Assembly (NCBI GenBank): GCA_964016885.1
Contig: OZ024743.1
Span: 172,856,001-172,920,000 of the forward strand
DNA from: Eledone cirrhosa
Taxonomy: Eukaryota
Direction: 5' to 3'
Length of the DNA stretch: 64,000 nucleotides
Below, in pieces: positions 12,441 through 59,651 of this stretch. The notes beneath the pieces were generated by a model that saw only the letters and a list, made by a program, of their open reading frames with translations, was not told the DNA's origin and ran no database searches. Position numbers and translations under genes: made by a program. Positions within the stretch are counted from its first letter, which is position 1. Each line of letters starts with the position of its first letter.

Positions 12441-12511
12441 TTATTTCACAATTATAACAATTAGTCCACAGGATTGGATGTTGCTTTTGTTTCTCAGACT
12501 GTAGATTTCAT
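12441..12511 (-). CDS. CENPC: CENP-C-like coding exon 19 (last; cupin end and stop)
   Basis: Acceptor tttgacag, phase 1. Encodes (N)EIYSLRNKSNIQSCGLIVIIVK*. AATAAA overlaps and follows the stop. Confidence 0.88.
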
Positions 12512-13223
12512 CTGTCAAAAGTATATAAAAATATATATATATATATGTGCACGCATGCAGAGAGAGAGAGAGAGAGAGGGGGGGGGGGGAGAATTAGATT
12601 GGGAAATATATAGCTTTGATTATTTTTAATTGTAAAGACTATACCACATTACAGACTAGTGATTAATGACTTCCAAATCACAGCTGGGCAAATACAGAAA
12701 CATGTGAGAAGGAGGATTTGAAAGCTAAGAGATCTCTATCACACATAGAAGTTCTAGATGATGCACATGGCAGAAGGAAGACACAGAAAGAGACATATAA
12801 CAGAGGACAGCTGGGAGTTTCTTTAGGACAACTTGCTGACAACTGTGTTTACATCTGTGTGTGGTGCAAGATACCAAGTGACATGATAATGGAATAGTGC
12901 TGTAGATAAAACTAAGCTAAGAGAAAGGCTTGAAAATACTTGAAAACAGTGTGTAGTAGAGACCAATATCATGTAACTAGACATCAAGTACACTTAGCTA
13001 GTGGAGAAGCTGAAAGTAGTAAGGGGTTTGCATATATTCTACAAGAAGAGAATAAGAGAAGTGAGATGTTGTGGATTTCAAGGCAGTATCCTAGACAGAA
13101 TTGTTAGGGTGTATGAAACAATAATGGCACAAAGCTCTTACCAACATTAAAATGAAAAAAATCCCATGCACCCTAAAAATCCTTAAAAAACTCCCAAACA
13201 AAACAAAATAATGATGTACATAC

Positions 13224-13314
13224 TTGCAGGAATCATGAAACTGTCCCCTGATGACAGTACCATAGTCTTGCAACCAATTCTTACTTTGACTTCACCATAT
13301 TGCACAAGGAACAT
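13224..13314 (-). CDS. CENPC: CENP-C-like exon 18 (cupin)
   Basis: ttctag/gtatgt splice sites, 91 nt, phase 0 to 1. Encodes MFLVQYGEVKVRIGCKTMVLSSGDSFMIPA. Confidence 0.9.
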
Positions 13315-15668
13315 CTAGAACAATAAATGTAAAAAAAAAAAATCTTTAAATAAGTTAAAAGAAACACTGATACAAAATGTCCCATATGCCTCTGTGTGTT
13401 ACATACCTAGAGAAGTAAATTCTGTTTTTACAGTAATGTTAAATTCACAAAGTTGCATTCATATTTAGTTGTATAGATATCCTCATCATTTAACATCAAT
13501 TTTCCTTACTAGTAAGGGTTGGTTGTATCGTCACAACCAATCAGTACTCTAGTCCAGTCTTGTACCTCAAGGTGGTGATCTGGGGCCTTGACATGTGATC
13601 CTATATTTCACTAAGTGCATTTTATCATGGCACCAACACTAGGGAGGTTTTCATGTCTCCCAACCCTTTATCTGGCAAGTTTTCTGTGCTTGGATGCTCT
13701 TCTTATCATCAACCACTGAGCTCCTCTGCAAGATTGGAACGTCATTTGCCTATCTGAGGAAGGAGCCTCGCGAGGTGGGGTGATTATTGCAGCAGGAGTC
13801 ACTGGTCATTGTCCGTGGAAATGCTTTTGTCTGCGGGGCACCGTCCCTACACCGCCCAGAGCCCACTTTTCCTCTCATTTATAGCCCTTTCCTCTACTTT
13901 CTCATATAGCCAGATCTGCCCTTCTTTACCTCTTCTCATTACTTAATTTTGGTTTTATCCTTTTTTTTTTTCATATTTATGTAATCATCAATGCTTTTTA
14001 AGTCAACTTTGTGAATATTTGTAATGTTATTTATGTAACTGTGAATAATAAAAACTTTATCAAGTGTACTGGGCGTGTTTATCGTGTAGATCTCCAACAT
14101 TAGAGAGGTTGTTATGCCCCTCACACAACTAAAGTCCTCTTAACCCTTTTGGTATGGTTTCTACAACAGCGAGTGCTTCCTACCACCAACCACTTTACAA
14201 GGTGTACTGTGTGCATTTATCATACTAGAGGGCTGTCGGTGATGGACTCTACTGAAGAGCCATCTCTACCTTACGAATGGGTTTGGAGAGGTGATCTCTG
14301 GCAGAGCGGGAGATACTATGTATGACAGCTGCTAAGGGGGTATGACTGGTGTGCCAAGGTTTCAGATGGAGGGATCTTGAGTAGAGAGGGAAGGTGAATG
14401 GTAATCTGGATTGAATAGGGGTGGTGGTGCAGTAACAGTGAGGATAGCTACTGGTGGGGGAATTTGTGAATGGGTCAGGTCATGTTTTAGGCTGGTAGAC
14501 AGGTCTTCACCAGCACAACATGTCATAAATCCTCATGGTCCTCTGTTATCTCTGTTGTGACGTTCAGCTTCATTGCGTAAATTATCCTTAGAGACAGAAA
14601 AAGTGCATTTTATCCTGTTACTAACATCAGAGAGATTATCATGTCCTTGACACAACTGAAGAGTCTTCTCAGCCTTTTGTTTGGCATTTATATGTTCTTC
14701 CAATCTTGACAAAACTGGCTGTCACCTGTAACTATGTTTTCTTTTATAGACTTTTTTCCAACTGAAGACATTGATTGTCTTTTGGAGCAGCACTAATAAT
14801 GACATAAGATGCTGTGTTCATGACTCTAATCATTAAATCATGCTTATATTTGAATATTGGTTCACTTGTTCTATGTATGAAGCCTATAATAGTGCATATA
14901 TATATATACACACACACATTTTAAGAAAATTAATGAAGTTTCATTTACAAGCATTTAGGTTTTAATTATGTATCAACCTGTTAAATGGATATGTGGTGTG
15001 TGCATGTGTATTCAGTATTTTTAGGGCTATCTTGAACTACATATTTTGAACTTTCACTTAAGATCGGAAAATGTGATTTGAGAAAGATTTTAGATGTTAT
15101 TAAACACTGTTCAAGTGACTACATAGATGCACGTTAGTTGGTCTGTATTGTTCTAAGTAGAATTTTGTTGTACCCTCTGAGCAAGGCTCACAACACATCT
15201 TGTTCCAGTTTACCTGACTTATCCTTATCATTTAACATCTGTTTTCACTGCTAGGAAGTAAACGATCTCTATTCTCTAATTTATGTTTCGTGGTAGAAAA
15301 GTCACCATTCTGTCTGCAAATATCAAGGGTTCCAATAACTAAAATATTCTACCAATGCAAATATGGAAAAATGAATTTAGAAAAAAACAAACAAAAACAT
15401 ATCATTAGTGATGAGGTTCTCTTATGCTGGTTCTTGCAGTCATGATCAACAAAGTTGAACATCTTGACTTTCGATGGTTGTGATTTACATGGCAGACAAA
15501 CACACTCCTACAAACACTCACTCATTTATAAAAGTGTTGAAATCCTGGGGAAAAATGACGAAACATGATGTATTCACCAAAATGACATTTAACATCTTTG
15601 TTTCAACTGCATAAAACGAATAAGTGTGATTTTCAGAGCACAGACACAGACAGACAGAAAGTACTCAC

Positions 15669-15841
15669 CTCTTCATTATGAGTTCGTTTTAGTGGTTTAT
15701 AAGCTCCTTTCTTCAGACAGATCAACCCCATAAATCCGTTCTCTGAATTCAAGCAACAGCAATAAATAATATCAAGTGCCTTTGATGGCTCTAATGCCTT
15801 GTTACTTATATACTTATAAGTCTGTTTGGGTGCAAAAACAT
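15669..15841 (-). CDS. CENPC: CENP-C-like exon 17 (cupin N-half)
   Basis: tggcag/gtgagt, 173 nt, phase 1 to 0. Encodes VFAPKQ...GFMGLICLKKGAYKPLKRTHNEE. Confidence 0.88.
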
Positions 15842-16689
15842 CTGCCAGAAACCAAAACAAAAGAAAACTTTAATAAATAAGGAGACAAATACTTGACTCA
15901 CATCACATCCTCCACTCCAATTCCACTGCCTTTCATCATCCTGTCTTCCCCAACATGAAGTCTCCCAAACATTACTTCCTTCCCTATCACATTAATTGTT
16001 GTTGTACCCATCACACTCATACTAATCACTTTCAACCTCTCTATTGTTGATGCCAAGATAAAATACACACATTACATTTTTTAAAGTTGTTGGTGAATAA
16101 ACACAGGGTAGCCTTTTCTTGTCAAGGACATGACAATTTCTCTAGTGCTGGGTACCATGATAGGATATACTCTGTAAAATGTGTTAAGTGGTGAGTGAAA
16201 GGAAGGACATCCATTTAGCATATATATATATATTATATTATTTATTTATGTTCATACTTGGAACAAAGGTACTACCTAATGTTTCAAGGACTTAATTTGA
16301 CCATACCTCCAAAAAATAAGAGGCATCAAAATATTGACCTTTCTTCTAGCACTAATGCGAGTTTATAAAATAGCGTTAAAAGTAAATTTTGCCAAGAACA
16401 CGTGTTTATGAAAGATAACATCATAAAACAAAGGGAAATAACTCCAAGCTTTAAATATGAATCGAGATGAACCACGTATTTGTATACTATAGCAGAAGTA
16501 TTGTATTATGTAGTGGAATGTAATATAGAAATGGTAAGATTTAATAATTGTTTCTACTTTTTGGCACAAGGCCAGCAATTATCCAGTGCATTACTGGTAA
16601 TATATTGAGTATAGTAGTGTAGAAAGTGTATTGTATTATGTAAGTGTGGAAAGAGAAAGAAAAGATATAATGGAAGTATATAAATCCAA

Positions 16690-17540
16690 TTAAGGTGGTT
16701 GAAAATCAGTCAAATTTGTTGAATATTTCCACCTAGCGAGCAATTGAGTTTTGGGATGGAGACATTCTCTAAAAAGTTCTGTCTTTGAGTTCAAGTAAAT
16801 ATTGTTCGGAGATGACAAACCTTGTAATATCCTAAATTTCTCACTCACATGGAGATCATATTTCTTGGTACCGTTGGTGTAAGGCCTGGATCTTTCAATT
16901 ACCTTCCAAGATATCTTATGTGGGACTCTTTTCTTCTTTAATTGCCAGACTTTCTTCACCAGAACTGTACTGGTTCTCATATCAGGATTCTTGAAGATGT
17001 GGAAATGCATGTAGAAACATTGCTTAAAACGATCTTTCACCATACCAACATATCTTTTGTGAACTTCAGAATTTTGTGTTGCTGTGTGTAATCTCTGCCT
17101 CATTCACAATGGATTTGATAGTACAATTCTATTAGAGAGGGCAGTTTTCTTACAAGAGCAGCTTCGATTATCGTTGGGTATATTTTTTCTAGTAATTTCA
17201 GATCTTATAGATGGTCTACAGTTTACTGTATGTATGTTGTGGTGGGAAATATCTATCTAATAAATCTAAAAATGTCTTACCTACATTAGTCTTTACTTTA
17301 AGGGAAAGGGGGGGGGGGGTACAAACCAAATTATTATTCTTTTTCTATAATTCTTGTTTAGTATGGTTGGGTTGGGAATGATCAGATGTGTACATACTTT
17401 TGTCCTTAAAATCACTATCTACAAGTGTTTGGTTGCAGTAAAGCACAGCCTTATTGAAAATCTCCCAGGTTGCTGATAGATTAGAGATCCTACAACTAAT
17501 GTTTGAAACTAAATTTTTAAAAACAGCAGGGGATGGCATG
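16690..17540 (-). mobile_element. Penelope-like element fragment (RT thumb and GIY-YIG endonuclease)
   Basis: YVGM..RFKQ, ISWKVIE, LNSKTELFRECLH and CRISNLS motifs. Confidence 0.85.
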
Positions 17541-17552
17541 AGGCTTTATTAA

Positions 17553-17759
17553 CCCTTTAGCATTTGCATTATTCTCTGTATACTATTGTATTTTCGCAGT
17601 AAAGACTTTATCTTACATAATATCAAATTTATGAGATTTTGATATTATTTATTTTGAGAACAATACTTTAACATTGGTATGAGTGGCCGGTTATGGCCGA
17701 TTTGAACAGAAGAGGTGAGCGAATTCTGGCCGGATACAGCCGATTTGAATGCTAAAGGG
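17553..17759. mobile_element. piggyBac-type MITE
   Basis: TTAA-CCCTTTAGCATT...AATGCTAAAGGG-TTAA. A second copy lies at 52968-53172. Confidence 0.88.
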
Positions 17760-17764
17760 TTAAT

Positions 17765-18833: not shown

Positions 18834-18947
18834 TTTTCACTGTATGTTTCTCAGAGGATGATCTTAATGCATGTTTCTTTTTGTGTTGTAAAGGAGGTGA
18901 CATTTCTATCAGTGGGAGATCACCTTGTGATACATTTGAAGTTTCAT
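18834..18947 (-). CDS. CENPC: CENP-C-like exon 16 (repeat exon 6)
   Basis: cctcag/gtaagt, 114 nt, phase 1-1. Encodes ETSNVSQGDLPLIEMSPPLQHKKKHALRSSSEKHTVK. Confidence 0.82.
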
Positions 18948-20531
18948 CTGAGGAAAAGAATTTAATATTTAATACAGTTTACAGATATTTCCGAAAATAA
19001 TGAACAACAAAGGAAAAGAAAGAAAAAGGCAGAAAGAAGAGACAAAGGAAAAGAACTCAGACATGATGGACACCTACCTGCATATTAAATTCCTAAATTT
19101 GCTGATAGCATTATTGTCAGTGTCTTGTAAAGATCTCACAAAAGATTCTTCTACCGTTTATTTATGATGGACAACCACACCAAAAAGCATGAAACATTGT
19201 CAAATGGCTTCTCCATGCCAACAAATTCTTAGTAAAATCTCCTTTTTACTTGGGTAAGAATTTCCTCTGTAATTACTTCACTGACGAAGGCATACTGATG
19301 CCTACATCCAGCACAAGAGCTAAGTGCAACTCATTTAAGCTAGTTATCTTCCTTGATAAGGCTGATTTAAAAAAGAAAATTACATATTTTCTTGCAACTG
19401 GTGAAAAGCATCACTGTTTACAAGTTTCTAATGGGGCCAATCACCAACAGTGACAAAGGAGTGCTGGATAACTCGATTTAGAACATCAGAAGGCTTAGTT
19501 GAAGAAAACCAGTTTTTCTATTTTCTCACAAATATTTATTTCTTTTCCCAATACACATCAGCAAAAGATACATGGCGACACATACACATACATACATACA
19601 TATATATTTTTAAATACAAGGGAAACCATTGTATATTTTTCTAACATTCTTATGTTGCCTCCAGCTTAAGTTTTCAACCCAATGTATATGCTATATCAAG
19701 ATACTTTTGTTGTTTGATAGTATAAGTCCAAATTTCACTATCGTAAAGTAGGATTAGTTATATTGTAACTTGGAAGAGTCTCAATTTGGAGGAATTTGGT
19801 ATGTTAGAATGCCAGTTTCTGTCAAGCTTATTACATGCTGATCACACCTAGGCTTTTCTAGCTTTGAAATCTTTTCCATAATCCGTGATCCAAGAACCAA
19901 GGTACTTAAAATCGTTTATAATGAAGAATGTAAGTCGTTATAGTTTTTAGTAAGGTTAGATCAGAAGGCATTAAATAGACAAACTCCATTACAAGTATGT
20001 ACTTCATTTATTCTTGCTTCACACTGTGAAAGTCATTTTGCCTGTATTTCCATGTGTGAGATACGACAGGATATGGCGTGTCGAAGAATCGACATCTTGA
20101 CGATAGCGGGTTTATCTGGAGACTGATCTTCTGACTTAACTTCCGTTCTCTGGTCTAAGTAGTCCAGTTACTTGTATCGCTACACCGAAGGTTTTGATTG
20201 GCTCACACTTCAGCCAATTTACTTCCGTAACATTTTTCTTCCGCCGAAGGAAAATACATTTAATTACATATTACTGCTACATCACCCCCTGCTTAGGCTG
20301 AAGGCCGACAGAGAAAAAAAGTGTAGCAGTTGCAAGAAAGAAAAAAAAATATGACAGTAAATATATAATAAACAATGTCATTTCACAGGAATGTCTGCGT
20401 TTTGTTTCAGAGAAAAAGAGGAACATAAAAACTGAGCAGCAGAAATAGTCCAAAGTTCACATTAATTAATGCATTTAATATAAATACAAGAGAGGACAAG
20501 AACTCAAAAAGCTTGCTTGATATAGCATAGT

Positions 20532-23500
20532 TCATGTATACAGAGTCTTGCAAAGCTTTTTGGGCCAATGTACTCGGCGACCACTACGTGTGGTGGTGAC
20601 ATATGTAGGTGTAGGTGGAGAAGGTGTGTGCAATGTTGCATGTGTAGCGTGTGTTGGCTGATGCAGAGTATATGTAGGGGGAATATGGGGCTCTTGTGTG
20701 AGAGTGTCTGTAAAGGCCCGTTTCACCCTATCGATGGATACAGTCTCTTTTTTACCACCAATGACCAGAGTGAACAGTTTATCTGTGCGTGCAAGCACAC
20801 GATAAGGACTGGTGTAAGGTGACGTTCTGTAGAAAGACGTGGGTCCACGAAGCAATGTCTTTTGGGACCGAAGACTTTGTCTGTTGCCGAGGGTTCATAG
20901 GCGGAAGATTGTCAAAATAAGATCGCAGTCTGTTCACATACAGAGCTGGATCTGTTTCAGGTAAATCCATTGGGGTCAACATCTGACCCGGCAAAGATAT
21001 AGGTACTCTGTAAACCAGTTCAGCTGGGGAGTATCCTAGATCCTCCTTGATAGCTGCACAACAGCCAAGAAGGACAATTGGTACATACTCGCTCCATTGC
21101 TGTTGATCCGGATAAGCGCGCAGTGCGGCTTTCAATTGGCGGTGGAAGCGCTCTATCATTCCGTTCGAAGCTGGATGATAGCTAGTCGTTCGGATGCGCT
21201 TAATTCCCAGGATCCTTGAAAGTTCTCGGAAGAGATGGGACTCAAACTGTCCACCACGGTCCGTGGTGACAGTGGTTGGAACTCCGTAACTCGATATCCA
21301 ACCCGATACTAGGGCTCGCGCTACAGATTCCGCCGAAATGTTACTTAAAGGAATGGCTTCAGGCCAACGTGTGAAGCGATCAATACAGTTCAGGAGATAG
21401 GTAAATCCTTGGCTGACTGGCCATAGTCCAACGAGATCTATATGGACATGACTGAACCGAGTTTCTGGAGTGCTGAAAGTTCCGAGAGGTGCGCGGATGT
21501 GTTTGTGCACCTTTGACTTCTGGCAGGACAAGCAGGAACGTGTCCAGGCAGTGATGTGATGCCTCATATTCGGCCAGAAGAATCTAGCCGAAATGAGCTT
21601 CACTGTGGTAGATATTCCAGGGTGTGCTAGGCCGTGCAAGGTTTCGAAAACTGCTCGAACTAGAGGACGAGGTGAATCCGTCGAGGTGTCACAAATAATC
21701 TGTGTGTCCGAAGTGGGCAAAGTTTGTTATGAAAATTTGCCAGTTGCAAATTCAGGAGACGAAAGATCCAAGGTGTCCAGGGGTGGCTGTTCTGTGGCCA
21801 TCCGTTGAAGGTCAATATCCGAAGGTGATGACAGGGAATTGATTGGGAGGCGAGACAAGGCATCTGCCGCCGCATTCTGCTCACCGGAGATGTGTCGGAT
21901 ATCGCTGGTAAATTGTGAAACGAAGTCCAAATGACGAGTTTCGCGAGGTGAATATTTATCCGGCTTAGAACACAGTGCGAACGTAAGCGGACGATGATCG
22001 GTGTAGATCGCAAATTGACGACCCTCCAGTGCATGCCGAAAGTGTTTCACTGAGAGGTACATAGCCAGGAGTTCACGGCCGAACGTGCTATATCGTGTTT
22101 CTGCAGGTTTCAGTTGTCTCGAGAAGTACACGAGAGGTTGTAATTGTTGTTGGTGATGCTGTTGCAAAACTGCACCTACAGCTGTGCCCGATGCATCAAC
22201 GACCAGTGAAAACTGGGCACCAGACACAGGATGTGCAAGCAAGTGATCTCTCCGCAAGTTTCTGCTTCACTTCATTGAAGGCTTTTAGCTGACTCGTGTC
22301 CAGTGTGATGGATTCATCTTTCCTTTTCCTGTTACGTAACAGGTCAGACAGAGGAGACAGGAGATCCGCACAGTGTGGGATAAAACGTCTGTAGTAGTTC
22401 AGCAGACCAAGGAAATGTCGTAGCTGGCGAAGTGAAGTGGGTGGTTGAAGGTCTTGCAGAGCTTTCACTTTGTCAGGTAGTGGTGATATTCCCTCTGGGC
22501 TGATGACATGGCCCAAGAAGACAAGTGAAGATACACCGAAAACACATTTCGCCGGGTTAATTCGTACTTGATACTGCTGAAACAGCTAAAAACAGTAGAC
22601 GGAGGTGAGTGACATGTTCCTCGGGTGAGGCACTTGCCACGAGAATGTCATCAATGTAGTTATACACGAAGTCCAAATCGTGCACAACTTCATCCATGAA
22701 ACGTTGGAAAGTACTGGCTGCGTTTCGCAAACCGAAAGGAATAGCCAGAAATTCGAACGCTCCGGAAGGAGTTGTTACGGCAGTTTTAGGTATATCTGCC
22801 GGGTTCATTGGAATCTGGTGGTAAGCTTTGACGAAATCCAATTTGGAGAATGTCTTACATCCATGAAGCGAAGACGCGAAATCTTGTATGTGTGGGATCG
22901 GGTAGTGATCGGGTACCATCATCGCGTTTAACCGGCGAAAGTCCCCAGTGGGACGCCAATCACCGGAACACTTCGGAACCAAATGCAAAGTAGCGGCCCA
23001 CGGACTTGAGGATGGGCGTATGATCCCCAGCTGTAGCATGTGGTTAAATTCAGCCTTCGCTGCTTTCAATTTCTCCGCAGGGAGGCGGCGAGGGCGAGAA
23101 AATACAGGAGCGCCAGAAGTTTCGATATAATGTTTTGTGGAGTGAGTAGGCTTGCTCACCACAAAATTCAAATTTGTCAATTCTGGGAAGGAATTTAGAA
23201 GCGATTGGAAAGGGTCCTCTGAAGCGGCGATGAAGAATACCGGGCTGATAGATGAGACAGTAGATCTCAAACCCGGAACAGAGAGTTCCGTATTAGCATC
23301 CAACAACCGGCGTCTGTGCATATCCACTAAGAGGTTATAGTGGTGCAGGAAATCCGAGCCTAGAATAGGGTAAGGCAAATCAGCGACCGTGAAAATCCAC
23401 GTGAAGTCTCTTCGCAATTCCAGGTTCAAAGAACGAGAAATCTGACCATATGTGGAGATAGGAGAATGATTTACGGCTTGCAGAGAAATGGATGAAACTG

Positions 23501-23621
23501 GCGGCTTCTCTTTGAGAAGTTTTAGCGGCCATATGCTGCAAGCAGCGCCTGTATCCACTAGACATCGAGCTTGGGAAAACGTGTCAGTTATGAAGAACGC
23601 ACGATTATTTGGGAGTGTCAT
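20532..23621 (-). pseudogene. Gypsy 2 pol, several frameshifts
   Basis: ORFs 22557-23621 (PR/RT), 22196-22516, 21727-22257 (RNH), 20779-21720 (IN) and 20532-20855. Confidence 0.93.
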
Positions 23622-23638
23622 AGGAGACTGTGCCGTGC

Positions 23639-24397
23639 TCAGGTCTCCTGAAATCTGTTTCCCTGGAGGGAAAACGAACAGGGCTGTTTACAAGAGCATG
23701 CCGCTGCGCCAAAACGGCGGCGTGGCGAGGGCAAACGGCTCTGGAAGCGACGTCTGGGCGATTGAGCCCTGGAGGTACTCAATTTTCTCACCTCTTTGGT
23801 GAGTTGCTCTATGGCTTGAAGTATTGCCACAGACGCAAGTGAGTGATCTGTGTGGACGGCAGCTGCTGGAGAGAACGAAGAGACCGCAGCCGGTGACTGA
23901 GGTGCAACATAGGAGGCAGGGTTTCCAGTGAAACTTATAATTTTGTCGGCCGAAGCCGCTAGCTGGTCGACTGTGGTAGTCTCCATCATAGGTGCTAAAA
24001 TCGCCTGAACACCGGGCGGCAGCCTTGAAAAGAAAAGCTGTTTAAAGAGGGCGCTGTCAGCTGGGGTGTCTTCCGCCAGCTCTTTCATGCGACGCAGAAG
24101 CTGTGTGGGCGTCCGATCACCCAAATGTTCATCATTGACGAGTGTCTGGAATTTATTCTTCGCGGACAATGTGGTCCGCCGCAAAACCTCGCGTTTTACG
24201 CTCTCATAGGAGGCTCCAGGGGCAGGATCAGTTATTAAATCTTTAACAACCTTCGTCAATGCCGCCGGGAAAGCACTCAAAAGCATGTGTAATTGTCTGA
24301 CTTCAGACGTAATGTTGTTCGCGGTAAAGTAAGACTCTATTTGTGCGAACCAAACATTGACATCGCCGGCAAACGCTGGCAATGAGGTGCTACCCAT
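23639..24397 (-). CDS. Gypsy 2 gag
   Basis: [10 protein letters not shown] and [21 protein letters not shown] slippery-type heptamer lies near the 3' end. Confidence 0.9.
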
Positions 24398-26617
24398 CGT
24401 GAATTATGGTATTCCGTAATAGGAAAATGCAGGCCAAGAGGAATATGTTAAGAAATGTCAGAGAGGAAAATGTTAAGAATTAAAAAAAAATTCTTATATT
24501 TTTCAAAAAGGCGTTGCCTTCAAATCAAATTGGCTGGCAAACAAACGCAGAAGACGTATAATGGCCATAACGCTCCGGAATACAGGCACAAAAAAAAATT
24601 ATAATGCACGATGGAATAATTTACCGATAATTTTTTTTTTTTTTGTTTTTTTTTGTTAATAATGTCGATACAAAATGTGTTTGTGCATGCAGGCAAATGA
24701 TAAATATAATGATAACGAAATAATTGTTCTAAACAACAAAACGTTCAGTTTTTTTTTTTTCTTTGTTACAGCATTCTTTCTTTCTTTCATATTTGTTGTA
24801 CCAAAATGCTTGTTTGAATCACATCGGCCTCACCATTTATAATGAAGAGTGTAAGTCGTTATAGTTGTTAGTAAGGTTAGATCAGAAGGCATTAAATAGA
24901 CAAACTCCATTACAAGTGTGTACTTCATTTATTCTTGCTTCACACTGTGAAAGTCATTTTGCCTGTATTTCCATGTGTGAGATACGACAGGATATGGCGT
25001 ATCGAAGAATTGATGTCTTGATGATAGCGGGTTTATCTGGAGACTGATCTTCTGACTTAACTTCCGTCCTCTGGTCTAAGTAGTCCAGTTACTTGTATCG
25101 CTACGCCGAAGGTTTTGATTGGCTCACACTCCAGCCAATTTACTTCCGTAACATTTTTCTTCCGCCGAAGGAAAATACATCTAATTACAAAGGATATATA
25201 TTACTGCTACACGTTAACTCTCTTAATTCCACTTCCATCTTGTGCTTTAAGAGTAGTTTGAGCAAATGAGAGATGTATTGTCTTGCTTTCATTGAGATGG
25301 AGACCAACAAGAAGAGTTGCTTCTTGGAAAGCCATGAAATGTTGGACATTCTCCAGGAAATCTGCTAGAAAAGCAATGCCATCTGTAAGATGTTGAGAGG
25401 AATGTTTTGAGCTCAAGAGAGATTTTACAGGGATGTCCCTCTCAATGGCGTCTAGAGAGATTCTAAGAGAGCAGTCTAGTGCTATGATGAAAAGGAATGG
25501 TGCAGGTGTGTTATTTTGAAATACACATGCAAAGATGTCAAAGAATTCAGTTAGGCCACCAGGAGTATTTATATTTGCATTGGTGTTTTGATAGTGTCTC
25601 AATTGCTTCCAAATTTGGAAGAGGATATCTCTATTTATGCTGTTGATAAATTTACAAAATAAGAGCCATTTCCTTGATGTAATTCTTTATTTTTTCAACT
25701 ATCCTTCTTAGGGCTAGAAATTGAACAAGAGTAGATCTTTCATGACTGAAATCATTTTCGTTGATTTCGGATGAAACAAGTCAGTTTAGAATTACTTTCA
25801 TGGAACAAATTAGTTTAGAATACTTTGTTGTAAATTTGGCATCAATGTGATTCCCAGCCATTTGTTTGGAAAAGAGACGTCACCCTTCTTAAGAATGGGA
25901 ATTATGCCAGCTTTAAACAAAATTGGGGTGGGGGTGGGGGGTGAGAAAGTGCACCAAATATCTCATTACATATTGACAGAAGAACTAAGGCCAGTTTAGG
26001 GTCTTTCCAAATCATATTGGGAATATTGTCAAGGTTTGGAGGTTACTTGTTCTCAAGGGGATTACAAAATTGATTTCACTCAAAGAAAAGTCTGTTATTG
26101 ACATGTCTAATGGAGGTGACATCTCTATCGGTAGGAGATTACCTTCGACAGGAGATAGTACACCCAAGAGACCCTTAATGTGGTTGACCTAGTTTCTCTG
26201 TGTGCTTGCTGAGAACCCCCTTTGATAATAGGGGAAAGCTTTTCTTTCCTACCAGTTATTTTATTTACTAAGGTCGACTGCAGGTTGTACTGGACTTACA
26301 GCCTTGACCAAGTAGTAGTCCCAGATGCAATATGACTGACCTGACTTCAGCCACTTTCACCTTAATTTAATGAGTTGAGCATTTAATTAATTGAACAACC
26401 GAATGCTCATCATCAAATCAGAGATTCTATCATGTGTTTTGGTTATCAAACATGAAAGTAAAAGCACTCGTATTTAGAGTTTATTCATTAATTCAAGAAA
26501 GCGACTAAATACTTTTGCTACTCCAAGTTTCCTGTTAAAAGAAACTCAAAGGAGTGATAAAATGAAGCTTCCTCAGCTTTAAATAAATAAATATGAATAT
26601 TTAAAACATACTCTTAC

Positions 26618-26707
26618 TTTCTAATGCATGTTTCTTACTGGGTGATGGCTGAGGTGTTTTGTGTTGTAAAGGTGAAGATTTGTCTTGTAGTACATCTACA
26701 GGTTCAC
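26618..26707 (-). CDS. CENPC: CENP-C-like exon 15 (repeat exon 5)
   Basis: ccttcag/gtaaga, 90 nt, phase 1-1. Encodes EPVDVLQDKSSPLQHKTPQPSPSKKHALE. Confidence 0.82.
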
Positions 26708-27160
26708 CTGAAGGAAAGAATATCATTTAACACAGTTACAGAGATTTCTGAATATAATGAAAAACAATAATAGTAACAACAAAACAAAAAAGGAAAGAAA
26801 AAAGAAAGAAACAAAAATTGTTCACATTCCATTGTGGTTAACACCAGACTGTACAGATATATAAAAATACAAGAGAGTAGAGAGATTACAATATCTCCAA
26901 CCCATGCTAGCATGGAAGATGGACGTTAAACGATGATGATGATGATCCACCACTGCATATCAGAATGCGCTGTGTGAAGCTATATTTTGAAAAATAGATG
27001 CATGGATTGATCTTATTTCTTTGACTCACTACCTATGTGTCATATAAGCCTGCTCAATCATGACGGCCCCATTGCTGGACAATAACAGCAATTAGTCTCT
27101 CCATAGTCTAATGATTAAACTTACAATACAAGGAAACATAGTTGTTCAAGTTTAACTTAC

Positions 27161-27259
27161 TTTTCCGTTTCAATGTGCCTTGTTTCTTATTTAGTGATGA
27201 CTGGGAATTTTTCGGTGGTAAAGGTGAAGATTTGTTTTGGGGTATATGTGCAGGCTCAT
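27161..27259 (-). CDS. CENPC: CENP-C-like exon 14 (repeat exon 4)
   Basis: ccttcag/gtaagt, 99 nt, phase 1-1. Encodes EPAHIPQNKSSPLPPKNSQSSLNKKQGTLKRK. Confidence 0.8.
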
Positions 27260-27834
27260 CTGAAGGAAAGAATTTAATATCTTATAGCTACTTCTGAAAA
27301 CAACAGCAACGAGTAAAAAGACAGAAAAATAGAAGAGAGGTAGGAATAAAGCAAGCAAAGAAGAAACAAAAAGTGAAATAATAACGAAGTAAAAGCAAGA
27401 ATGTAAAAATCGGAAGGCGAGGGAAAGGTAAGCTTCATAACAGATTTATGTGAAAAACACCAAAAGCTGAATGTTTAGAACAAAACTACATATATGATCA
27501 AAATATCCAGCATTTTAACATTACAACAGAGATGATGACAAACTGTGGACCATACCAAAGTACTGTATACATGGGTGCCACAAGTCTGTTTGATGAAAAT
27601 ATATGTGGGGTCAAGAAAACCTGTGAAACAAAAGGTTGAGAAGACTCTTCATTTGTGTCAAAATTATGATAACCTCCCCTAGTGTTTGTGACATGATGAA
27701 ACACACCTATGTGTCATATAAGCCTGCTCAATCATGACGGCCCCATTGCTGGACAATAACAGCAATTAGTCTCTCCATAGTCTAATGATTAAACTTACAA
27801 TACAAGGAAACATAGTTGTTCAAGTTTAACTTAC

Positions 27835-27933
27835 TTTTCCGTTTCAATGTGCCTTGTTTCTTATTTAGTGATGACTGGGAATTTTTCGGTGGTAAAGGTG
27901 AAGATTTGTTTTGGGGTATATGTGCAGGCTCAT
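27835..27933 (-). CDS. CENPC: CENP-C-like exon 13 (repeat exon 3, identical to exon 14)
   Basis: Identical 99-nt copy with intact splice sites. Confidence 0.78.
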
Positions 27934-28439
27934 CTGAAGGAAAGAATTTAATATCTTATAGCTACTTCTGAAAACAACAGCAACGAGTAAAAAGACAGAA
28001 AAATAGAAGAGAGGTAGGAATAAAGCAAGCAAAGAAGAAACAAAAAGTGAAATAATAACGAAGTAAAAGCAAGAATGTAAAAATCGGAAGGCGAGGGAGA
28101 GGTAAGCTTCATAACAGATTTATGTGAAAAACACCAAAAGCTGAATGTTTAGAACAAAACTACATATATGATCAAAATATCCAGCATTTTAACATTACAA
28201 CTAAGATGATGACAAACTGTGGACCATACCAAAGTACTGTATACATGGGTGCCACAAGAAAACCTGTGAAACAAAGGGTTGAGAAGACTCTTCATTTGTG
28301 TCAAAATTATGACAACCTCCCCTAGTGTTTGTGACATGATGAAACACACCCAGTACACTCTGTAGCGTATTGGAATGCATATAAGCGAGAAGACATGAAG
28401 GTACTTGCAAAAATATGAAATAAAATGTGAAAATCTATG

Positions 28440-29193: not shown

Positions 29194-29289
29194 TTTTATT
29201 TTTCAATGTACATTTGGCAGTTGGTGATTGTTGAGACTTTTTGTGTGGTAGACGTGAGCTTTTTTCTTGGGAATCATCTGAGGGCCCAA
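29194..29289 (-). CDS. CENPC: CENP-C-like exon 12 (repeat exon 2)
   Basis: cttgcag/gtaagc, 96 nt, phase 1-1. Encodes GPSDDSQEKSSRLPHKKSQQSPTAKCTLKNK. Confidence 0.8.
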
Positions 29290-32339: not shown

Positions 32340-32420
32340 TTTTAAATGCACATTTACTAATCTGAGGCTTTTTGTGTTGTAAAGGTGAAGATTTGTTTTG
32401 AGGCCCATCTGAAGATACAC
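32340..32420 (-). CDS. CENPC: CENP-C-like exon 11 (repeat exon 1)
   Basis: ccttcag/gtaagt, 81 nt, phase 1-1. Encodes VSSDGPQNKSSPLQHKKPQISKCAFK. Confidence 0.82.
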
Positions 32421-33170: not shown

Positions 33171-33236
33171 TTTTATCTTCCGAATCCAGTGCTCTTTTCA
33201 TATTTATGGCAGTATCTGATCCACACTTCAAGTTAA
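33171..33236 (-). CDS. CENPC: CENP-C-like exon 10 (symmetric, less certain)
   Basis: gttccag/gtaggg, 66 nt, phase 1-1, open. Encodes NLKCGSDTAINMKRALDSEDK. Not needed to keep the frame. Confidence 0.6.
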
Positions 33237-33970: not shown

Positions 33971-34152
33971 CTTTATATTTTTCAGCCAACTTGCTAGCAC
34001 CTTCTGATTTCTTCACAGGTTTTTCTTCATCATCAATGAGACACAAGTTAGATTCTAATACATCAAAGTAATGCATCTCAATTATTTGTTTATGAACACC
34101 AAATGCCGAAATTACTTTTTGGGGTAATTTGGTATTTTTCTTTGAAGGAACA
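33971..34152 (-). CDS. CENPC: CENP-C-like exon 9
   Basis: cttcag/gtttgt, 182 nt, phase 2 to 1. Encodes VPSKKNTK...LIDDEEKPVKK...EKYK. Confidence 0.8.
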
Positions 34153-35047: not shown

Positions 35048-35097
35048 CTTTTTGATATTTGCTTTTTCTTCATGGGTGACATATGTTTCAACAAAAC
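35048..35097 (-). CDS. CENPC: CENP-C-like exon 8
   Basis: aaacag/gtaact, 50 nt, phase 0 to 2. Encodes VLLKHMSPMKKKQISK. Phases match both neighbours. Confidence 0.75.
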
Positions 35098-42424: not shown

Positions 42425-42465
42425 ATCTTTATTTTCATTGACATTCTCCAAATTATTCTCTTTCT
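42425..42465 (-). CDS. CENPC: CENP-C-like exon 7
   Basis: ttttcag/gtaagt, 41 nt, phase 1 to 0. Encodes KENNLENVNENKD. Confidence 0.8.
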
Positions 42466-43694: not shown

Positions 43695-44041
43695 CTTGAC
43701 ATTCTTTCAAACCACTGACTCTATTGTTGACCATATTTTCTGGTTCTATTTCTGGTAACTCACAGACATTCTGGGGGAAAGATTTCTCTGCTGGAACCAA
43801 CATTGGTCTCTCTAGTGAAGCAGGCTTTTTGGTGAATGATTCCTCATCTTCAGGAAAAGATTTCATCCCTCGTCTATTGAGTCTTCTCATTTTGTTGTTA
43901 GATTCAGAGCTAGAGCCTGCAGAAGACACTCCGTGAATCTTTGAGAGTATCCCTCCTTCATGGTCACTGTCTTCCGAGTCAAAGGTATCACCTGATGACT
44001 TCATTCCACGCTTACTGATAACACTTTTCACATATGAAATC
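43695..44041 (-). CDS. CENPC: CENP-C-like exon 6 (largest; disordered, Ser/Glu-rich)
   Basis: ttgtag/gtattg, 347 nt, phase 2 to 1. Lies within ORF 43543-44052. Confidence 0.85.
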
Positions 44042-44293: not shown

Positions 44294-44347
44294 CCCTCAG
44301 AAATAATTGAACAAGAATCTGACATTGACTCAACAGGGAATGATAGC
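44294..44347 (-). CDS. CENPC: CENP-C-like exon 5
   Basis: ttgcag/gtaagt, 54 nt, phase 2-2. Encodes LSFPVESMSDSCSIISE. Confidence 0.8.
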
Positions 44348-44375
44348 CTGCAATGAAAAGAATTAATTAATAACT

Positions 44376-45402: not shown

Positions 45403-45485
45403 CTTTTCCTGGAAGGAAAATTCGACAGGGAAAGAGGAGCCATCTTCGAGCCATCTTCTGCTGGGTGTTTTACAGCTATTAATTG
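45403..45485 (-). CDS. CENPC: CENP-C-like exon 4
   Basis: atttcag/gtatat, 83 nt, phase 0 to 2. Encodes QLIAVKHPAEDGSKMAPLSLSNFPSRK. Confidence 0.75.
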
Positions 45486-47103: not shown

Positions 47104-47150
47104 GATATTACTGGATTTGTCCTCAATTTCTATATCAGATTCATCAGTGT
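47104..47150 (-). CDS. CENPC: CENP-C-like exon 3
   Basis: tttacag/gtaaga, 47 nt, phase 1 to 0. Encodes TDESDIEIEDKSSNI. Confidence 0.8.
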
Positions 47151-54285: not shown

Positions 54286-54419
54286 ATATATAAAAATTGA
54301 GTATAGTTAGATTGTTCTTCACTACCACATTATGATGTATATCATCAGCATAGTATCCATACTGTCCATTGGAATATAGTGTTAGGCTGTAATACAAAAA
54401 CGTTTTATATAGTTTATGC

Positions 54420-54860
54420 TTACAAGCTGAAATTACCCCAGATTTTTTGCTTAAAATTTATTTGTTGGCGTAAAGGGTTTCCAGAGCTGCAGTGGCACAA
54501 AGATCACATGGTCTTTTATTTCCGTTATAGGTTCTACCTTTAGCTAACATCACTCAGTGTAACGTATATTGGATATTATTGTCTTTTATATTCCTTCTTA
54601 AAAGGTTTCGAAATGAATGAGAGTGCATCAACCTTACATTTGTAAACTATATTGTTTTATACGCATTTCCCAGCTAGAGGCAATTGCAGTTAGAACTAAC
54701 TTCAGAATTGTTTACATTACTACAGCTATGTAATTTAGCTAATTTAGATGCAGTGATGTTGTGTGTGAGGTTAGGAGTTGTGAAATAGGATATTTTAACT
54801 GTGTTTCTATTAAAAATCTTGTGATATTTATGTGTTAAAGTAAGAGAGGCTTTAGCTATT
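54420..54860 (-). mobile_element. Penelope-like fragment
   Basis: HKIFNRNTVKISY..TPN, CNC and CDLC motifs. Confidence 0.8.
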
Positions 54861-54879
54861 GGTGTGACCATTTCCATAT

Positions 54880-57200
54880 TATATCGCAGTAAGCAAGAGA
54901 CGGAATGAGACATACAGGGAGGTGTGGAGAAGAAATGTCTGGAAGTTAAAAGACCTTTCACTAAAATACAAATTTTGGAAAGCCCTTCAAGATGTGTATG
55001 ACGAAAAAGAAGACGATTTTGAGTCGTATGACATAGATGATAGCTGGAATTTCTTACGTGACAACTTACTGCAGGCTACTGAAGAAACTTGTGACTGGAG
55101 CAGAGCTCCAACCAGACAGAGAGTGACCTGGTGGTGGAACAGCACGGTAGATAAGGCCATTACAGACAAAAGACTAGCATGGAAGGCTTGGAAAAAGGGT
55201 GGGAGTAGAGAAGGATATACATCCGCTAAGAGAAAAGCTAGACGTCAGGTGTACTTAGCACGCAGGGAGGCTGAGAGTAGGAGGTTTGCCAATGGTCTGC
55301 TACGGGGAGATCAGAGACGTGCGGTGTTCTGCAAATCAGGATGTTGTTGGAGATAAATGTGTCCAGAATGATGCCGGTGTACTTAGTGTCACAAATGATC
55401 AGAAAAAGGAAGCCTGGAAATGTCATTATGAGGGACTGATGAATGTGGAGAACAAATGGGAGAGAGAAAAATTACCTCCAGTAGATCCGATAGAGGGACC
55501 AGCTATTGAGATTGACGAATATAGGGTCCAAGAGGCGATTAAGGAAATGAAAAATGGTAAGGTCGCTGGACCATCGGGGATAGTTGCTGAGATGCTGAAG
55601 GCATTAGGGGACGTAAGCAACTAAACTGGTTGCACGCATCATCAATCAGGCTATATATGGCAGTGACATACCCAAAGACTGGTGCAGCAGTATTCTCATA
55701 AATTGCTACAAAGGTAAAGGGGATGCTCTGGAGAGGAGCAATTATAGGGGTATAAAGCTGATGGATCAGGTCATGAAAGTGGCAGAAAGGATATTAGCGC
55801 AACTAATTAGAGAAAGGGTCAAACTAGATGAGATGAAGTTTGGTTTTGTGCCTGGGAAAAGTACAGCGGATGCCCTCTTCTTAGTGAAACAATTACAAGA
55901 GAGGTTCTTAGAGAAGAATAAGCCATTATACTTAGCTTTTGTTGACCTAGAGAAGGCCTTTGATAGGGTACCCTGATCTGTCATCTGGTAGTCCCTAAGG
56001 AAACTAGGTGTTGAGGAATGGCTTGTGAGGACAGTGCAAGCTTTGTACAGAGGTGGTGTCAGTAAAGTGACGGTAGGAATGGAGTTTAGTGAGGAATTCC
56101 AGATACAAGTAGGAGTACATCAGGGTTCGGTCCTCAGCCTGCTCTTGTTCATTATAGTCCTCCAAGTCATAACAGAGGAATTTAAGACTGGCTGTCAATG
56201 GGAACTTCTCTATGCTGACGATCTGGTTCTTATAGCAGAATCAGTAGAGGAGCTGGAGAATAGATTCTGGCTATGGAAACAGCAGTTGGAACCAAGAGCA
56301 CTGAGAGTGAACGTAGCTAAGACAAAAGTGTTGATGAGTAGAAAAGAGGCCAAAACTCTGATTCTGTCAGGGAAATAGCCACGTCCGATATGCCGAAAAG
56401 GAACTGGCATAAATTCTATAAAATATACACAATGCAGATCTTTGGTACACAAGAGATGTAGTGGGATAGCAGGCAAACTAACAGGTAGGGAAAACTATGT
56501 ATGCAGTAGATGTCCAGGGAAATTTGACAGTAGAAGTTGCATTGATAGACACATTTTTCCAATGCAGGTGGGTTCTATAGAAGTGGTTGATAGCTTCCGG
56601 TACCTAGGTGATCAGATAAGCATGGGAGGGGCATGTTCCGAGGCCATAGTAGCTAGAATAAGGATGGGTTGGAAGAAGTTTAGGGAGCTGCTTCCTCTGC
56701 TGACGAAGAAGGGTTACTCCCTGTGTACGAAAGGCTGGTTATATGATGCCTGTGTGAGGAGCACAATGCTGCATGGTAGTGAGACATGGGCAGCAACTGC
56801 AGAGGATATGCGATGGCTGGAGAGAAGTGAAGCAAGCATGCTCCATTGAATGTGCAATGTCAATGTGTATGAACGGCCAAGCATGGATCTGCTGAGAGAG
56901 AAACTGTCTCTGAGAGGGATAAATTGTTGTGTGCGGGAGAGGACTGCGATGGTATGGACATGTGATGCATATGGAGGATGACCGATGGGTGAAGAAGTGC
57001 CAGGAAATGCCAGTTGAAGGAAGACATAGTGGAGGAAGACCATGAAAAACATGGGCGGAGGTGGTGAGAGCAGACCTCAGATCACTGAAGCTCACGGTGG
57101 AGATGACGAAGGACCGTGACAATGGAGAGATGCTGTGCTGAATAGTACCTGTCCCACCCTTGCAATCAGGGAAAAGCGGACGTAAAATGATGATGATGAT
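54880..57200 (+). mobile_element. RTE LINE (second subfamily), 5'-truncated
   Basis: TWWWN, VDLEKAFDRVP, GVHQGSVLS and YADD motifs, and a GAT tail. Confidence 0.92.
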
Positions 57201-57998
57201 ATATATATAAGAGCGTACATGTGTTTCCATATTTATTGTGATGTTGACACCCTTTATGTATTGCAACTTAGTGGTTTGATGAGTGAAGATTAGTGGAATA
57301 AGTAACATAATAAGAGATAGCAACAGGAAGAGCATTTGAACATAGAATTTTATGTCTGCTTTTAACGCTGGCATGGATTTTACGAGTTGTCACACCCTGA
57401 CACCAGATGGGTTAGAACAACCCGTCTTGCTTATAATGAGCCATATCAGATGGACATATGATGATGATGAGTACAAGCACTGCAACACTAAATGTAAACA
57501 ATGGTAAGTAACTAGAAGAGATAACAATGTTTGAGAGAACTTTTCAGTCTGGCCTAACACGTGACAACCTCTCTAGTGTTGGTGCCACAATAAACTGTAC
57601 ACAGTACACTCTGTTAAGTATTAGTGTTGGTATCATGATAAAATGCACCTAGTACACTCTGTAAAATGGTAGTGCTGGTGCCACAATAAAATGCACTCAG
57701 TACACTCTGTAAGGTGGATGGGATTAGGAAAGGCATCTAACTATAGAAATGCCAAAAATGGAATGTATGAGCAAGACGTGATTCATTAACCTGTTTTGTC
57801 TATCCCAACTATGCCAGTGTGGAAAATGGATGTATGATGGTGATGATGATATGCAACAGGTTTTCTTACAGTTTCTGCCTACCAAATAACCCAGGGTTAT
57901 AAGAGAAGACACTTCTCCCAAAGTGCCATGCAGTAAGATTGAACAACTTAACCACACAGCCATGCTTGCACCAAACAATAAATAATATCAGTCATTAC

Positions 57999-58087
57999 CT
58001 GTTTCTGTGAAATAGTCCTCAAAATTTTCAAATCCATCTTCATCTACACGAATATTTTTCCCTTCAAAAATATTCTTTCGGGTATTT
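57999..58087 (-). CDS. CENPC: CENP-C-like exon 2 (Mif2_N-type motif)
   Basis: attgcag/gtaatg, 89 nt, phase 2 to 1. Encodes NTRKNIFEGKNIRVDEDGFENFEDYFTET. Confidence 0.88.
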
Positions 58088-58449
58088 CTGCAATAAATAT
58101 ATCAAAAATAAAAAAAAAAGCATCATTACATTTACTTGACTTATAAAACATTGGGAAATTTGAAATTTGGAAAATATAGTTGCCACAATGTAGATAACTA
58201 TGATAATAGTTGATGACTATAACAGTTGAATAAATCAGGTAACATACCCCTACAGACAGAAAAAGTGATCAGAGGTGCTTTGTGGGGAATCAAACTAAGT
58301 ATCTCATATATGCTGGGTGAGAGATGCATGGTTTGATTCCCCACAGTCCACTTTTTTCCAAAGATACTTTATATGATTTATTCAAGTTTATCTATAGTTA
58401 TCAGTATTGTGGTGATTATATTTTCAAAATTTCAAAGCATCATCAAGTT

Positions 58450-58750
58450 TAACAACAATGTTAAGATGTGTGAATGTCAAAGCATGGATGAGCTGAGAGT
58501 AAAGCGGAGTACAAGAAGAATCAGATGTAGTGTGCAGGAGAGAAGACTACATTGGTATGCATATGTGATGTGTATGGATGATGATCGTTGGGTAACGAGA
58601 TGCCAAGTGATCACAATGGAAGGAAGCTGTGGTAAAGGGAGACAAAGAAACACCTGGGCAGAGGTTGTGAGAGCCAAAGATCACTAAGATGACGAAAGAG
58701 GGATGCTATGCTAGCAAAAACATGTCTAAACCATGCAAGTGTGGAAAAAC
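58450..58750 (+). mobile_element. RTE LINE 3' fragment
   Basis: ERRLHWYAYVM and GRQRNTW. Confidence 0.78.
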
Positions 58751-59619
58751 GAATGATTTATGGTCATAGACTTTTTTTAATCTAACCAGGGACTAGACCA
58801 CCTCTTTTGTGCATGCTACAGTAAAATGTGTGAAATGGTTGGCCAACAAACAAAGACACTATAGGGTAGCCAGAGACAAGACAAGCACTCTAGTACTGAT
58901 GCTACAATAAATTGTACCCAGTACACTCGGTAAATTTGTAGAAAGATGACCCCCCCCCCCCCCTGATTTCAGTGAGAAATAATTTTTTTCATTTTTTTTT
59001 GTATGTGCTATCAATAAACTTACCTCCAAATATGGTGCAAAGGACATTTTTTCATGGAAAAGAGAGGAAGGAGAGGGGTGGTCTCTCGGACTTTTCACAC
59101 ACACCCCATCACCGATTTCAGTGGGACATAATCTCCCCCCCCCCCCCCTTTATTTTGTGCCTCTCCCTGTCACTGAGTTTCCTTTGCTATTTTTCCCTTG
59201 GTTTTTTCGTGTGCTACCAACTAAACTTACTCCCAAACATACAACGAAGGACTTTTTGCCTAGAAAACGGAGGCTGAAGCATAAATCCTCAAACTGGCCC
59301 CACCCAGAGTTTTATTTATTCCCTAACCCTAATATTGGGAGAGTGTGGGAGAAAAGTCTGAGGGTACCCCCACCCCTCCCTGTTTTCTGGAGGGAAAAAG
59401 TCCTTTACAGCATGTTCAGAGGCAAGATTAGTTGATAGCAAAAAAATGGGGGAAAAAATGGTAAAAATTGACCATTCAACAAAATAGTACAAAACTGATA
59501 TAAGTACTAGCGTTCAATACTATTATCTGAAAATCCTTATAAGCGGTGCCTCAGCATAGCTGCGGTCCAATAAAAGGAACCAGTCAAAAGAATTAGAACT
59601 AAAAGACACAAATACTTAC

Positions 59620-59651
59620 ATTCCAATTTGATGTAAAGTGCCAACGTCCAT
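59620..59651 (-). CDS. CENPC: CENP-C-like first coding exon (ATG)
   Basis: tttccag|A-ATG...|gtaagt. Encodes MDVGTLHQIGI and ends in phase 2. An upstream exon (UTR or coding) is implied but was not located. Confidence 0.8.

Follow-up and report, generated by a model that had tools for sequence, protein, structure and literature searches.

How is a CENP-C-type protein placed at centromeres when it carries no CENP-C motif? In the textbook account, kinetochores almost universally build on the CENP-C motif holding the tail of CENP-A, and the gene at positions 12441 to 59651 of the window (the whole 64,000-nt stretch of Eledone cirrhosa DNA that was analyzed; gene coordinates below refer to it, and all exons lie on the minus strand) appeared at first pass to lack this motif.

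An independent rebuild gave 19 exons from the ATG at 59651 to the TAA at 12441, and its 1905 nt encoded 634 aa with one (terminal) stop and no Trp; GT-AG borders were present in 18/18 introns and phases were consistent, which bore out the complete, phase-consistent 19-exon open reading frame of the first-pass annotation. With an Octopus vulgaris isoform as tblastn query, 15 of the 19 exons were matched, while exons 1, 7, 8, and 10 had no match of their own. Read support covered 2 of the 18 junctions (16–17 and 17–18), both from run X4, which was taken as RNA from its spliced joints alone: a 498-nt contig (depth 59.8) with CT..AC joints exactly at 18834>15841 and 15669>13314 joined exons 16, 17, and 18 exactly as modeled, with no motif exon ahead of the cupin; this spliced contig was absent from run X1.

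The 5′-terminal part of the gene comprised nine exons. Exon 1 (59620..59651) carried the ATG start, and an AG lay just upstream of it; a 5′ non-coding exon is therefore likely. Exon 2 (57999..58087) encoded a conserved N-terminal segment (72% identity to O. vulgaris and 47% to Sepia) with no Pfam match, and its position makes it a putative Mis12-complex-binding region. The N-terminus was kept in cephalopods (residues 1–118 being 66% identical to O. vulgaris), but its earlier description as Mif2_N-like gained no support: no Pfam, PDB, or Atlas match was obtained, alignment of the N-termini included, and the profiles Mif2_N, CENP_C_N, and CENP-C_mid had no match in the protein. Exon 3 (47104..47150) encoded an acidic linker, and exons 4 (45403..45485; 60% to O. 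vulgaris) and 5 (44294..44347; 83% to O. vulgaris) contained the first and second halves of a conserved RKRLSF motif, respectively; an alternative, Trp-containing frame of exon 4 was rejected, since O. vulgaris aligned to the other frame. Exon 6 (43695..44041) harbored two copies of [KR]RGMKS, a motif common to O. vulgaris and Sepia, exons 7 (42425..42465) and 8 (35048..35097) were present in the alignment of relatives, and exon 9 (33971..34152) encoded a conserved hydrophobic/acidic segment (45% to O. vulgaris, with a weak alignment to Sepia) that is a candidate CCAN-binding region.

Exon 10 (33171..33236), symmetric (phase 1-1) and the least supported of the exons, was followed by a series of basic Ser/Pro-rich repeat exons: exons 11 (32340..32420), 12 (29194..29289), 13 (27835..27933), 14 (27161..27259), 15 (26618..26707), and 16 (18834..18947). 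Exons 13 and 14 encoded identical protein and resulted from a recent tandem duplication (27027-27584 vs 27702-28258, 99.3% over 558 nt), while exon 16, the last repeat exon, occupied the place expected for the CENP-C motif and was spliced straight to exon 17 in X4. The CENP-C-type cupin was encoded by exon 17 (15669..15841; first part, 62% to O. vulgaris with E 5e-15, both splice sites read), exon 18 (13224..13314; middle part, acceptor read in X4), and exon 19 (12441..12511; end plus stop, 57% to O. vulgaris, junction 18–19 not being among those read).

The assignment of this terminal domain as a cupin was confirmed by PF11699 scores above cut-off in orthologs, by a PDB profile search, and by Foldseek. 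PF11699 gave 41.4 bits on the O. vulgaris cupin and 34.8 bits on that of Sepia (cut-off 29), while Cupin_2 gave 24 bits on the orthologs, under its own cut-off and 10-17 bits below PF11699, so that in the orthologs this unrelated family, which stands for metal-binding or enzymatic cupins, did not score better; exon 18 alone was not decisive (PF11699 E 9.5e-4 and score 19.8 vs Cupin_2 E 7.2e-4 and score 19.7). The cupin of the window gene was 65% identical to that of O. vulgaris. Seven of 11 matches in the PDB profile search were CENP-C/Cnp3/Mif2 (some judged so by length and range), with Cnp3 at the top (E 7e-6) and a bacterial cupin at the second rank; the best Atlas cluster was PF11699 (score 0.93, 187 shared features). 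Foldseek with the predicted fold (pLDDT 54, i.e., low confidence) gave a cupin but could not rank families, two bacterial cupins being placed slightly above chicken CENP-C.

The CENP-C motif RxxRxxxxPLxYW sits about 100 aa before the cupin, according to the available parts of PMC4830207 and PMC4359364. The rebuilt protein matched neither R..R.{3,6}P..[YFW][WF] nor P..[YFW][YFW], and with no Trp it also lacked the central motif RxxxxPxxWW; the absence of both Trp and CENP-C motif reported at first pass thus held. The central motif is optional in CENP-C and is absent in chicken. A six-frame scan of the window returned a single occurrence of the core pattern, on the strand opposite to the gene, compared to a chance mean of 0.375. 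A look-alike RR...PLIFW inside intron 16 (near 16359) was rejected, with a stop in 18/18 in-frame AG-GT options and a frequency at chance level (20/40 shuffles). A missed symmetric motif exon was looked for among 46 symmetric open candidates and found in none. The core RxxxxPxx[YFW][WF] was present in 0/29 isoforms of relatives (O. vulgaris, O. sinensis, and Sepia; 20 cupin-bearing; five short Sepia-cluster fragments left out of the scan), with the motif in 0/25 octopus isoforms, and, at about residue 406, all four Sepia isoforms displayed a loose PxxWY that lacked the arginine anchor. Genome-wide, the tight motif pattern had 34 matches vs 35 in the control; none of the 30 inspected was CENP-C- or M18BP1-motif-like, the rejected ones including two with Arg at -5 (in a LINE-like frame or ahead of a stop) and a LINE endonuclease-like PLEYW. 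No CENP-C-like motif was found in about 90 kb at the M18BP1 locus. Given its absence from the model and from the 29 isoforms, together with the exon 16–17 splice, the gene was classed as a CENP-C-like ortholog, not as canonical CENP-C.

The sequence analysis was also applied to the partner histone. CENP-A is distinguished by a divergent N-tail and by substitutions at H3 Q68, F84, and T107. One CENP-A gene was identified (G000:C8:25228998-25232390, minus strand; two exons, 134 aa), single copy among 23 matches; in the PF00125 search, 30 loci plus 8 more were inspected of 71 matches and again yielded one CENP-A, the others being H3, H3.3-like, other histones, decayed copies, and one NC2-alpha-like gene. 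Its N-tail was unrelated to H3, and M, W, and S occupied the Q68, F84, and T107 columns, respectively. It fell into a 41-row CENP-A clade (98/91) away from H3, with an octopod subclade at 100/95 (90 columns only), and at least 31 of its 49 matches bore centromeric names. The fold was intact and 80-88% identical across octopods, and two CENP-A surfaces deviated from other clade members. CENP-A is expected to have a hydrophobic C-terminal tail (PMC3865007). In the assembly, on which this observation stands alone, the Eledone protein ended one residue past helix 3 of the histone fold (one Pro, then the stop), compared to tails of 4-14 residues, beginning with Gly in 35 cases, in the 36 other clade rows; the other octopod tails kept a hydrophobic residue in 4/4, a weak agreement with that expectation. 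A base-call error is made less likely by what follows the stop: translated onward, the protein would gain 31 residues with no resemblance to any relative. Loop 1 (the RG loop), longer in CENP-A than in H3 in the available text of PMC13501546, was H3-length (insertion 0) in 5/5 octopods and had an insertion of 1-3 in 36/36 other clade rows.

Since the motif is missing in the relatives too and the sole CENP-A found offers no tail for it, the first-pass alternative of an ortholog targeting centromeres by another route was favored over that of a paralog, the meiotic or heterodimer version of which gained no positive support. It is thus somewhat probable that the gene encodes a motif-less CENP-C-type cupin protein, likely the only CENP-C ortholog, held at the centromere indirectly via partners and DNA contacts rather than through recognition of the CENP-A tail. 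With a motif-less CENP-C and a CENP-A ending after its histone fold, the chromosomes likely attach by a non-textbook route. As family knowledge suggests, the conserved N-terminus would bind the Mis12 complex, the cupin would dimerize and dock CENP-A loading factors (the genome has an M18BP1/KNL2-like gene), the motifs of exons 4-9 may serve as binding sites for further inner-kinetochore proteins, and DNA contacts may come from the basic Ser/Pro repeat exons. Motif loss probably preceded the octopus/cuttlefish split, as judged from a comparison set of octopuses plus Sepia, and the unread CENP-A tail may have eroded afterwards, completely so in E. cirrhosa. Profile searches of the genome for CENP-N, CENP-T, and CENP-I, run with no positive control, were blank or gave only H4/H3/TAF9-like matches, and three octopod karyotypes are given with arm ratios, i.e., localized centromeres, in the available part of PMC5646656.

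Other explanations were weighed against this motif-less ortholog. The same ortholog might still read nucleosomes directly, the twin [KR]RGMKS or the RKRLSF anchoring to the H2A-H2B acidic patch through arginine and recognizing a non-tail CENP-A surface; octopods and Sepia have both motifs in common amid otherwise fast-changing sequence, but no aromatic pair follows either, each of the known CENP-A-specific surfaces (tail and loop 1) is either missing or like that of H3 in this case, and RKRLSF presumably resembles a putative kinase/phosphatase site. Such direct reading is unlikely, even though the acidic patch is likewise where the canonical motif places its arginine anchor (PMC3865007). A missed motif exon, or one confined to a minor isoform, would be a plain model error and is highly improbable: reads from one run covered two junctions, with 105 weaker joints besides, and intron 16 does contain its look-alike, but that look-alike could not be spliced in frame and neither the symmetric candidates nor the octopus isoforms had the motif.

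A divergent paralog (e.g., germline-specific or recruited by cupin heterodimerization) beside an undetected, motif-bearing canonical CENP-C is rather improbable. In its favor, Cenp-C duplicates occur in Drosophila, as far as the available source text goes, and the genome searches missed their own positive control, the window gene: PF11699 and PF15622 gave 0 matches, and the Sepia cupin gave one match (E 5.6, with a stop). A PF15624 match at E 3.5 was rejected as not CENP-C-like. Exon 17 as a genome query recovered one locus and no second; in a word-index protein search it had no match. The paralog explanation is further opposed by the genome-wide motif count, no higher than the control, by the sole CENP-A found, with no tail for a canonical motif, and by the O. 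vulgaris matches, which resemble isoforms of a single locus (near-consecutive accessions).

Taken more widely, the favored motif-less ortholog allows the tentative, rather doubtful proposal that octopods, perhaps all coleoids, kept CENP-A and localized centromeres but dropped both the CENP-C/M18BP1 motif with the tail and the CENP-N-read loop-1 insertion, and use an undescribed recognition code; they would be the first animals known to have CENP-A yet no reader of the CENP-C-motif type. Reported natural motif loss in animals accompanies loss of CENP-A itself (dragonflies, in the available text of PMC4359364). A lineage with CENP-A but without the motif, one species being tail-less, is a natural experiment on alternative centromere specification and bears on why the motif is conserved though dispensable in cultured chicken cells; the modest size of the CENP-C-like protein and of CENP-A suits them to reconstitution and swap tests.

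The direct relative of the window protein was the O. vulgaris 'Mif2/CENP-C cupin domain-containing protein' (CAI9732251.1 plus isoforms; UniRef100_A0AA36BEQ2; 52% identity overall). They shared the layout, the repeat exons, and the absence of the motif, but differed in the number of repeat exons and in the CENP-A tail (4 residues in O. vulgaris); that protein carries an automatic domain label only, and neither a description of its missing motif nor any of octopus CENP-C was found in the literature search. Canonical CENP-C/Mif2/Cnp3 (PF11699; PDB 7x85, 6o2d, 2vpv, 6o2k, and 7xhn) and the window protein shared the C-terminal CENP-C-type cupin, a long low-complexity chain before it, and a conserved N-terminal segment, but the window protein had no central motif, CENP-C motif, or Trp; at the expected motif place, it had a series of basic repeat exons of about 30 aa each. 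Teleost/shark CENP-C (Kral 2016, PMC4830207) has a degenerate full motif that hampers recognition, with CENP-A kept as here, but fish CENP-C still contains RxxxxPxxWW cores while the octopod proteins contain none. Chicken DT40 cells with the CENP-C motif deleted are viable with CENP-A present, according to the available text of Watanabe et al. 2019 (PMC6891089), but this is an engineered line, and chicken KNL2 binds CENP-A via its own CENP-C-like motif in the accessible part of PMC13501546. The dragonfly (Odonata) CenpC-like protein, as described in the available sections of Drinnenberg et al. 2014 (PMC4359364), kept the cupin while its motif decayed, as here, but dragonflies lost CenH3 and are holocentric, whereas in E. 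cirrhosa both CENP-A and an M18BP1-like gene persist, and karyotypes of related octopods are described by arm ratios.

The window was animal sequence rich in repeats (G000:C4:172856001-172920000, in the 3.0-Gb Eledone cirrhosa assembly G000). An independent rebuild from the minus strand agreed with the complete 19-exon ORF without Trp or CENP-C motif that the first-pass annotation had described: the gene ran from 59651 to 12441 on the minus strand and encoded 634 aa in 1905 nt, with GT-AG introns throughout, no internal stops, no Trp, and no CENP-C-motif pattern (RxxRxxxxPxxYW type, expected before the cupin). A 498-nt contig of depth 59.8 in read run X4, which was taken as RNA from spliced joints alone, spanned exons 16, 17, and 18, its CT..AC joints falling where the model placed them, and it was absent from run X1; read support thereby covered 2 of the 18 junctions (16-17 and 17-18) in one run. 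The first 120 nt of this contig, beyond the compared stretch, had the length of exon 15 plus 30 nt and would correspond to them. The gene is real and expressed in at least one run, and, because the contig joined exons 16-17-18, its major form passed from the last repeat exon directly into the cupin.

Exon 17, queried against 1.84 billion proteins, matched only a 654-aa Octopus vulgaris protein. That protein had relatives in turn, 11 of the 8000 scored, of which nine were isoforms from O. vulgaris, one was from O. sinensis, and one from Sepia pharaonis. The S. pharaonis model carried a fused GIPC fragment, probably an annotation product. Against the O. vulgaris protein, the window model had 52% identity along its whole length, 66% for residues 1-118, and 65% for the cupin; the animal would thus belong to the octopods. 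The terminal cupin proposed at first pass held up: orthologue cupins scored 41.4 and 34.8 bits with PF11699 (cut-off 29), exceeding Cupin_2 (~24); a cephalopod cupin profile had Schizosaccharomyces pombe Cnp3 as its top hit and a bacterial cupin next, ahead of human, yeast, fly, and chicken CENP-C; and the top Atlas clusters were PF11699. A weak fold model (pLDDT 54) resembled cupins in general, with chicken CENP-C third and of top identity (35%). The start, previously called Mif2_N-like, found no support as such in Pfam, PDB, or Atlas; this N-terminal segment was kept across all three cephalopod lineages. Scanning 29 full-size isoforms (17 from O. vulgaris, 8 from O. sinensis, and 4 from Sepia; 20 with the cupin) found the pattern R-x4-P-x2-[YFW][WF] in none of them. 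Trp was lacking from 24 of 25 octopus isoforms, the exception having two, both in an N-terminal extension; all four Sepia isoforms, and no octopods, carried a loose PxxWY around residue 406 in which Ala occupied the anchor position. The window protein failed the canonical motif test, yet it is most likely a CENP-C orthologue.

Several features of these relatives were observed besides. All eight O. sinensis RefSeq isoforms seen (P0010, P0012, and others) ended ahead of the cupin and bore the names unc-89 or dao-5; a break in the annotation or the assembly likely conceals this gene there. Sepia proteins P0011, P0027, and P0028 had GIPC GH2 as the N-terminal fused fragment and one or two W-x-C-x2-C...C-x2-C modules, alternatively included, upstream of the cupin, which we take to be zinc-finger-like and which octopods lacked.

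Exons 11-16 encoded basic Ser/Pro repeats of ~30 aa each (36 K+R vs 14 D+E over 193 aa). Exons 13 and 14 were products of tandem duplication (99.3% identical), repeat-exon subsets differed between O. vulgaris isoforms, and the array appears still in flux. This recent duplication, at window 27027-28350 (period ~674 bp, 99% identical), doubled one coding exon. Intron 15 (~19900-25210, minus strand) contained an LTR retroelement-like sequence, presumably Gypsy-like, with two similar terminal repeats and split over several frames that we take as protease/RT/RNase H/integrase-like; a relative lay near 970-4750. Numerous decayed LINE copies, presumably RTE-like, occupied both strands of introns 2, 7, and 9-11 and of 60900-64000, and several kb-long (AT)n/(ATAC)n microsatellite blocks lay upstream of the gene (G000:C4:172920001-172930000).

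Could the motif be hidden, either in this gene or elsewhere? A symmetric motif exon missed by the model, the outcome against which the first-pass annotation had staked its reading, was not found among 46 symmetric open intron candidates (13 with Trp) or in six-frame scans of the window, where a full CENP-C motif was absent, the core matched once, antisense to the gene, and intron 16 held one loose look-alike; the look-alike was rejected, with a stop in 18/18 in-frame splice options and similar matches in 20/40 shuffles. Such an exon is extremely improbable. A paralogue alongside a concealed canonical CENP-C gene is distinctly unlikely: exon 17 matched its own locus alone in the genome; neither PF11699 nor the Sepia cupin recovered the window's own gene in searches, which are therefore weak against a distant copy; and a tight genome-wide DNA pattern, from a consensus we assumed to be P-L/F-x-[YF]-W-x-[GNDS..]-E-[RK], gave 34 matches vs 35 for the control, with no credible motif context among the 30 read, the pattern being blind to an intron-split motif.

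Because dragonflies lost the motif together with CenH3 (PMC4359364, available part), CENP-A was sought in the genome. Of 71 histone-fold matches, 38 loci were read, and one, on sequence C8 (G000:C8:25228998-25232390, minus strand), was 59% identical to H3; it had two exons, 134 aa, a one-residue C-tail, and H3-length loop 1, its upstream exon ended in phase past the alpha-N helix, and no second such copy appeared among 23 matches. Its nearest relatives, at 80-88%, were from O. sinensis, O. bimaculoides, Argonauta, and O. vulgaris, the last of them named 'H3-like centromeric A', and it fell inside the CENP-A clade (support 98/91, 90 columns) in a tree of 51 rows, 10 of which lay outside that clade and were excluded from tail and loop counts. 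The protein stopped one residue past helix 3; read-through added 31 residues resembling no relative, and the assembled stop codon is therefore probably genuine. Tails differed as follows: (i) 3-4 residues, Gly start in 0/4, and a hydrophobic residue in 4/4 of the other octopods and (ii) 4-14 residues, Gly start in 35/36, and a hydrophobic residue in 36/36 of the other clade rows; loop 1 was H3-length in 5/5 octopods and 1-3 residues longer in 36/36 others, and, since vertebrates made up most of these 36 rows, which included one named annelid but lacked any non-octopod mollusc, the contrast may extend beyond cephalopods. The CENP-C motif contacts both the acidic patch and the CENP-A tail, whose sole conserved feature is its hydrophobicity (PMC3865007), and CENP-N reads CENP-A loop 1 (PMC13501546, in the portion available).

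Among other partners, an M18BP1/KNL2-like gene on sequence C3 (G000:C3:262.78-262.81 Mb, minus strand) had split SANTA and SANT-like exons, with no CENP-C-like motif seen in ~90 kb scanned under an incomplete gene model; CENP-N, CENP-T, and CENP-I were not detected in genome searches run without a positive control.

A sidelined module of CENP-A and CENP-C is very unlikely, and direct centromere reading through a new motif is unlikely. The somewhat favoured reading is that the window gene is a CENP-C orthologue whose dimeric product would bridge the inner kinetochore to the Mis12 complex, being brought to the centromere by partner proteins in place of the CENP-A tail and aided by its basic repeats contacting DNA. 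Such indirect recruitment would be plausible because chicken cells survive without the motif, though human cells require one of their two motifs and budding yeast its single one (PMC6891089 and PMC9252888, available parts). More tentatively, and rather doubtfully, octopods may keep CENP-A without motif/tail reading or the loop-1 insertion, the centromere being read by an undescribed code.

In the literature covered (mainly open-access main texts), no motif-less CENP-C with retained CENP-A and eroded tail/loop was found, nor anything on CENP-C in octopus or anything relevant on cephalopod centromere, mollusc, or holocentric topics; PMC13218726 held no CENP passage, and mollusc CENP-C may appear in the supplements of comparative kinetochore surveys. 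Octopod karyotypes comprise metacentric to telocentric classes (PMC5646656, available part). Compared to known systems, fish CENP-C has degenerate motifs with the core kept (PMC4830207, as far as available), whereas octopod and Sepia isoforms lacked the core; CenH3-less dragonflies likewise have a motif-less CENP-C (PMC4359364, same part), whereas the octopod genome retains CENP-A.
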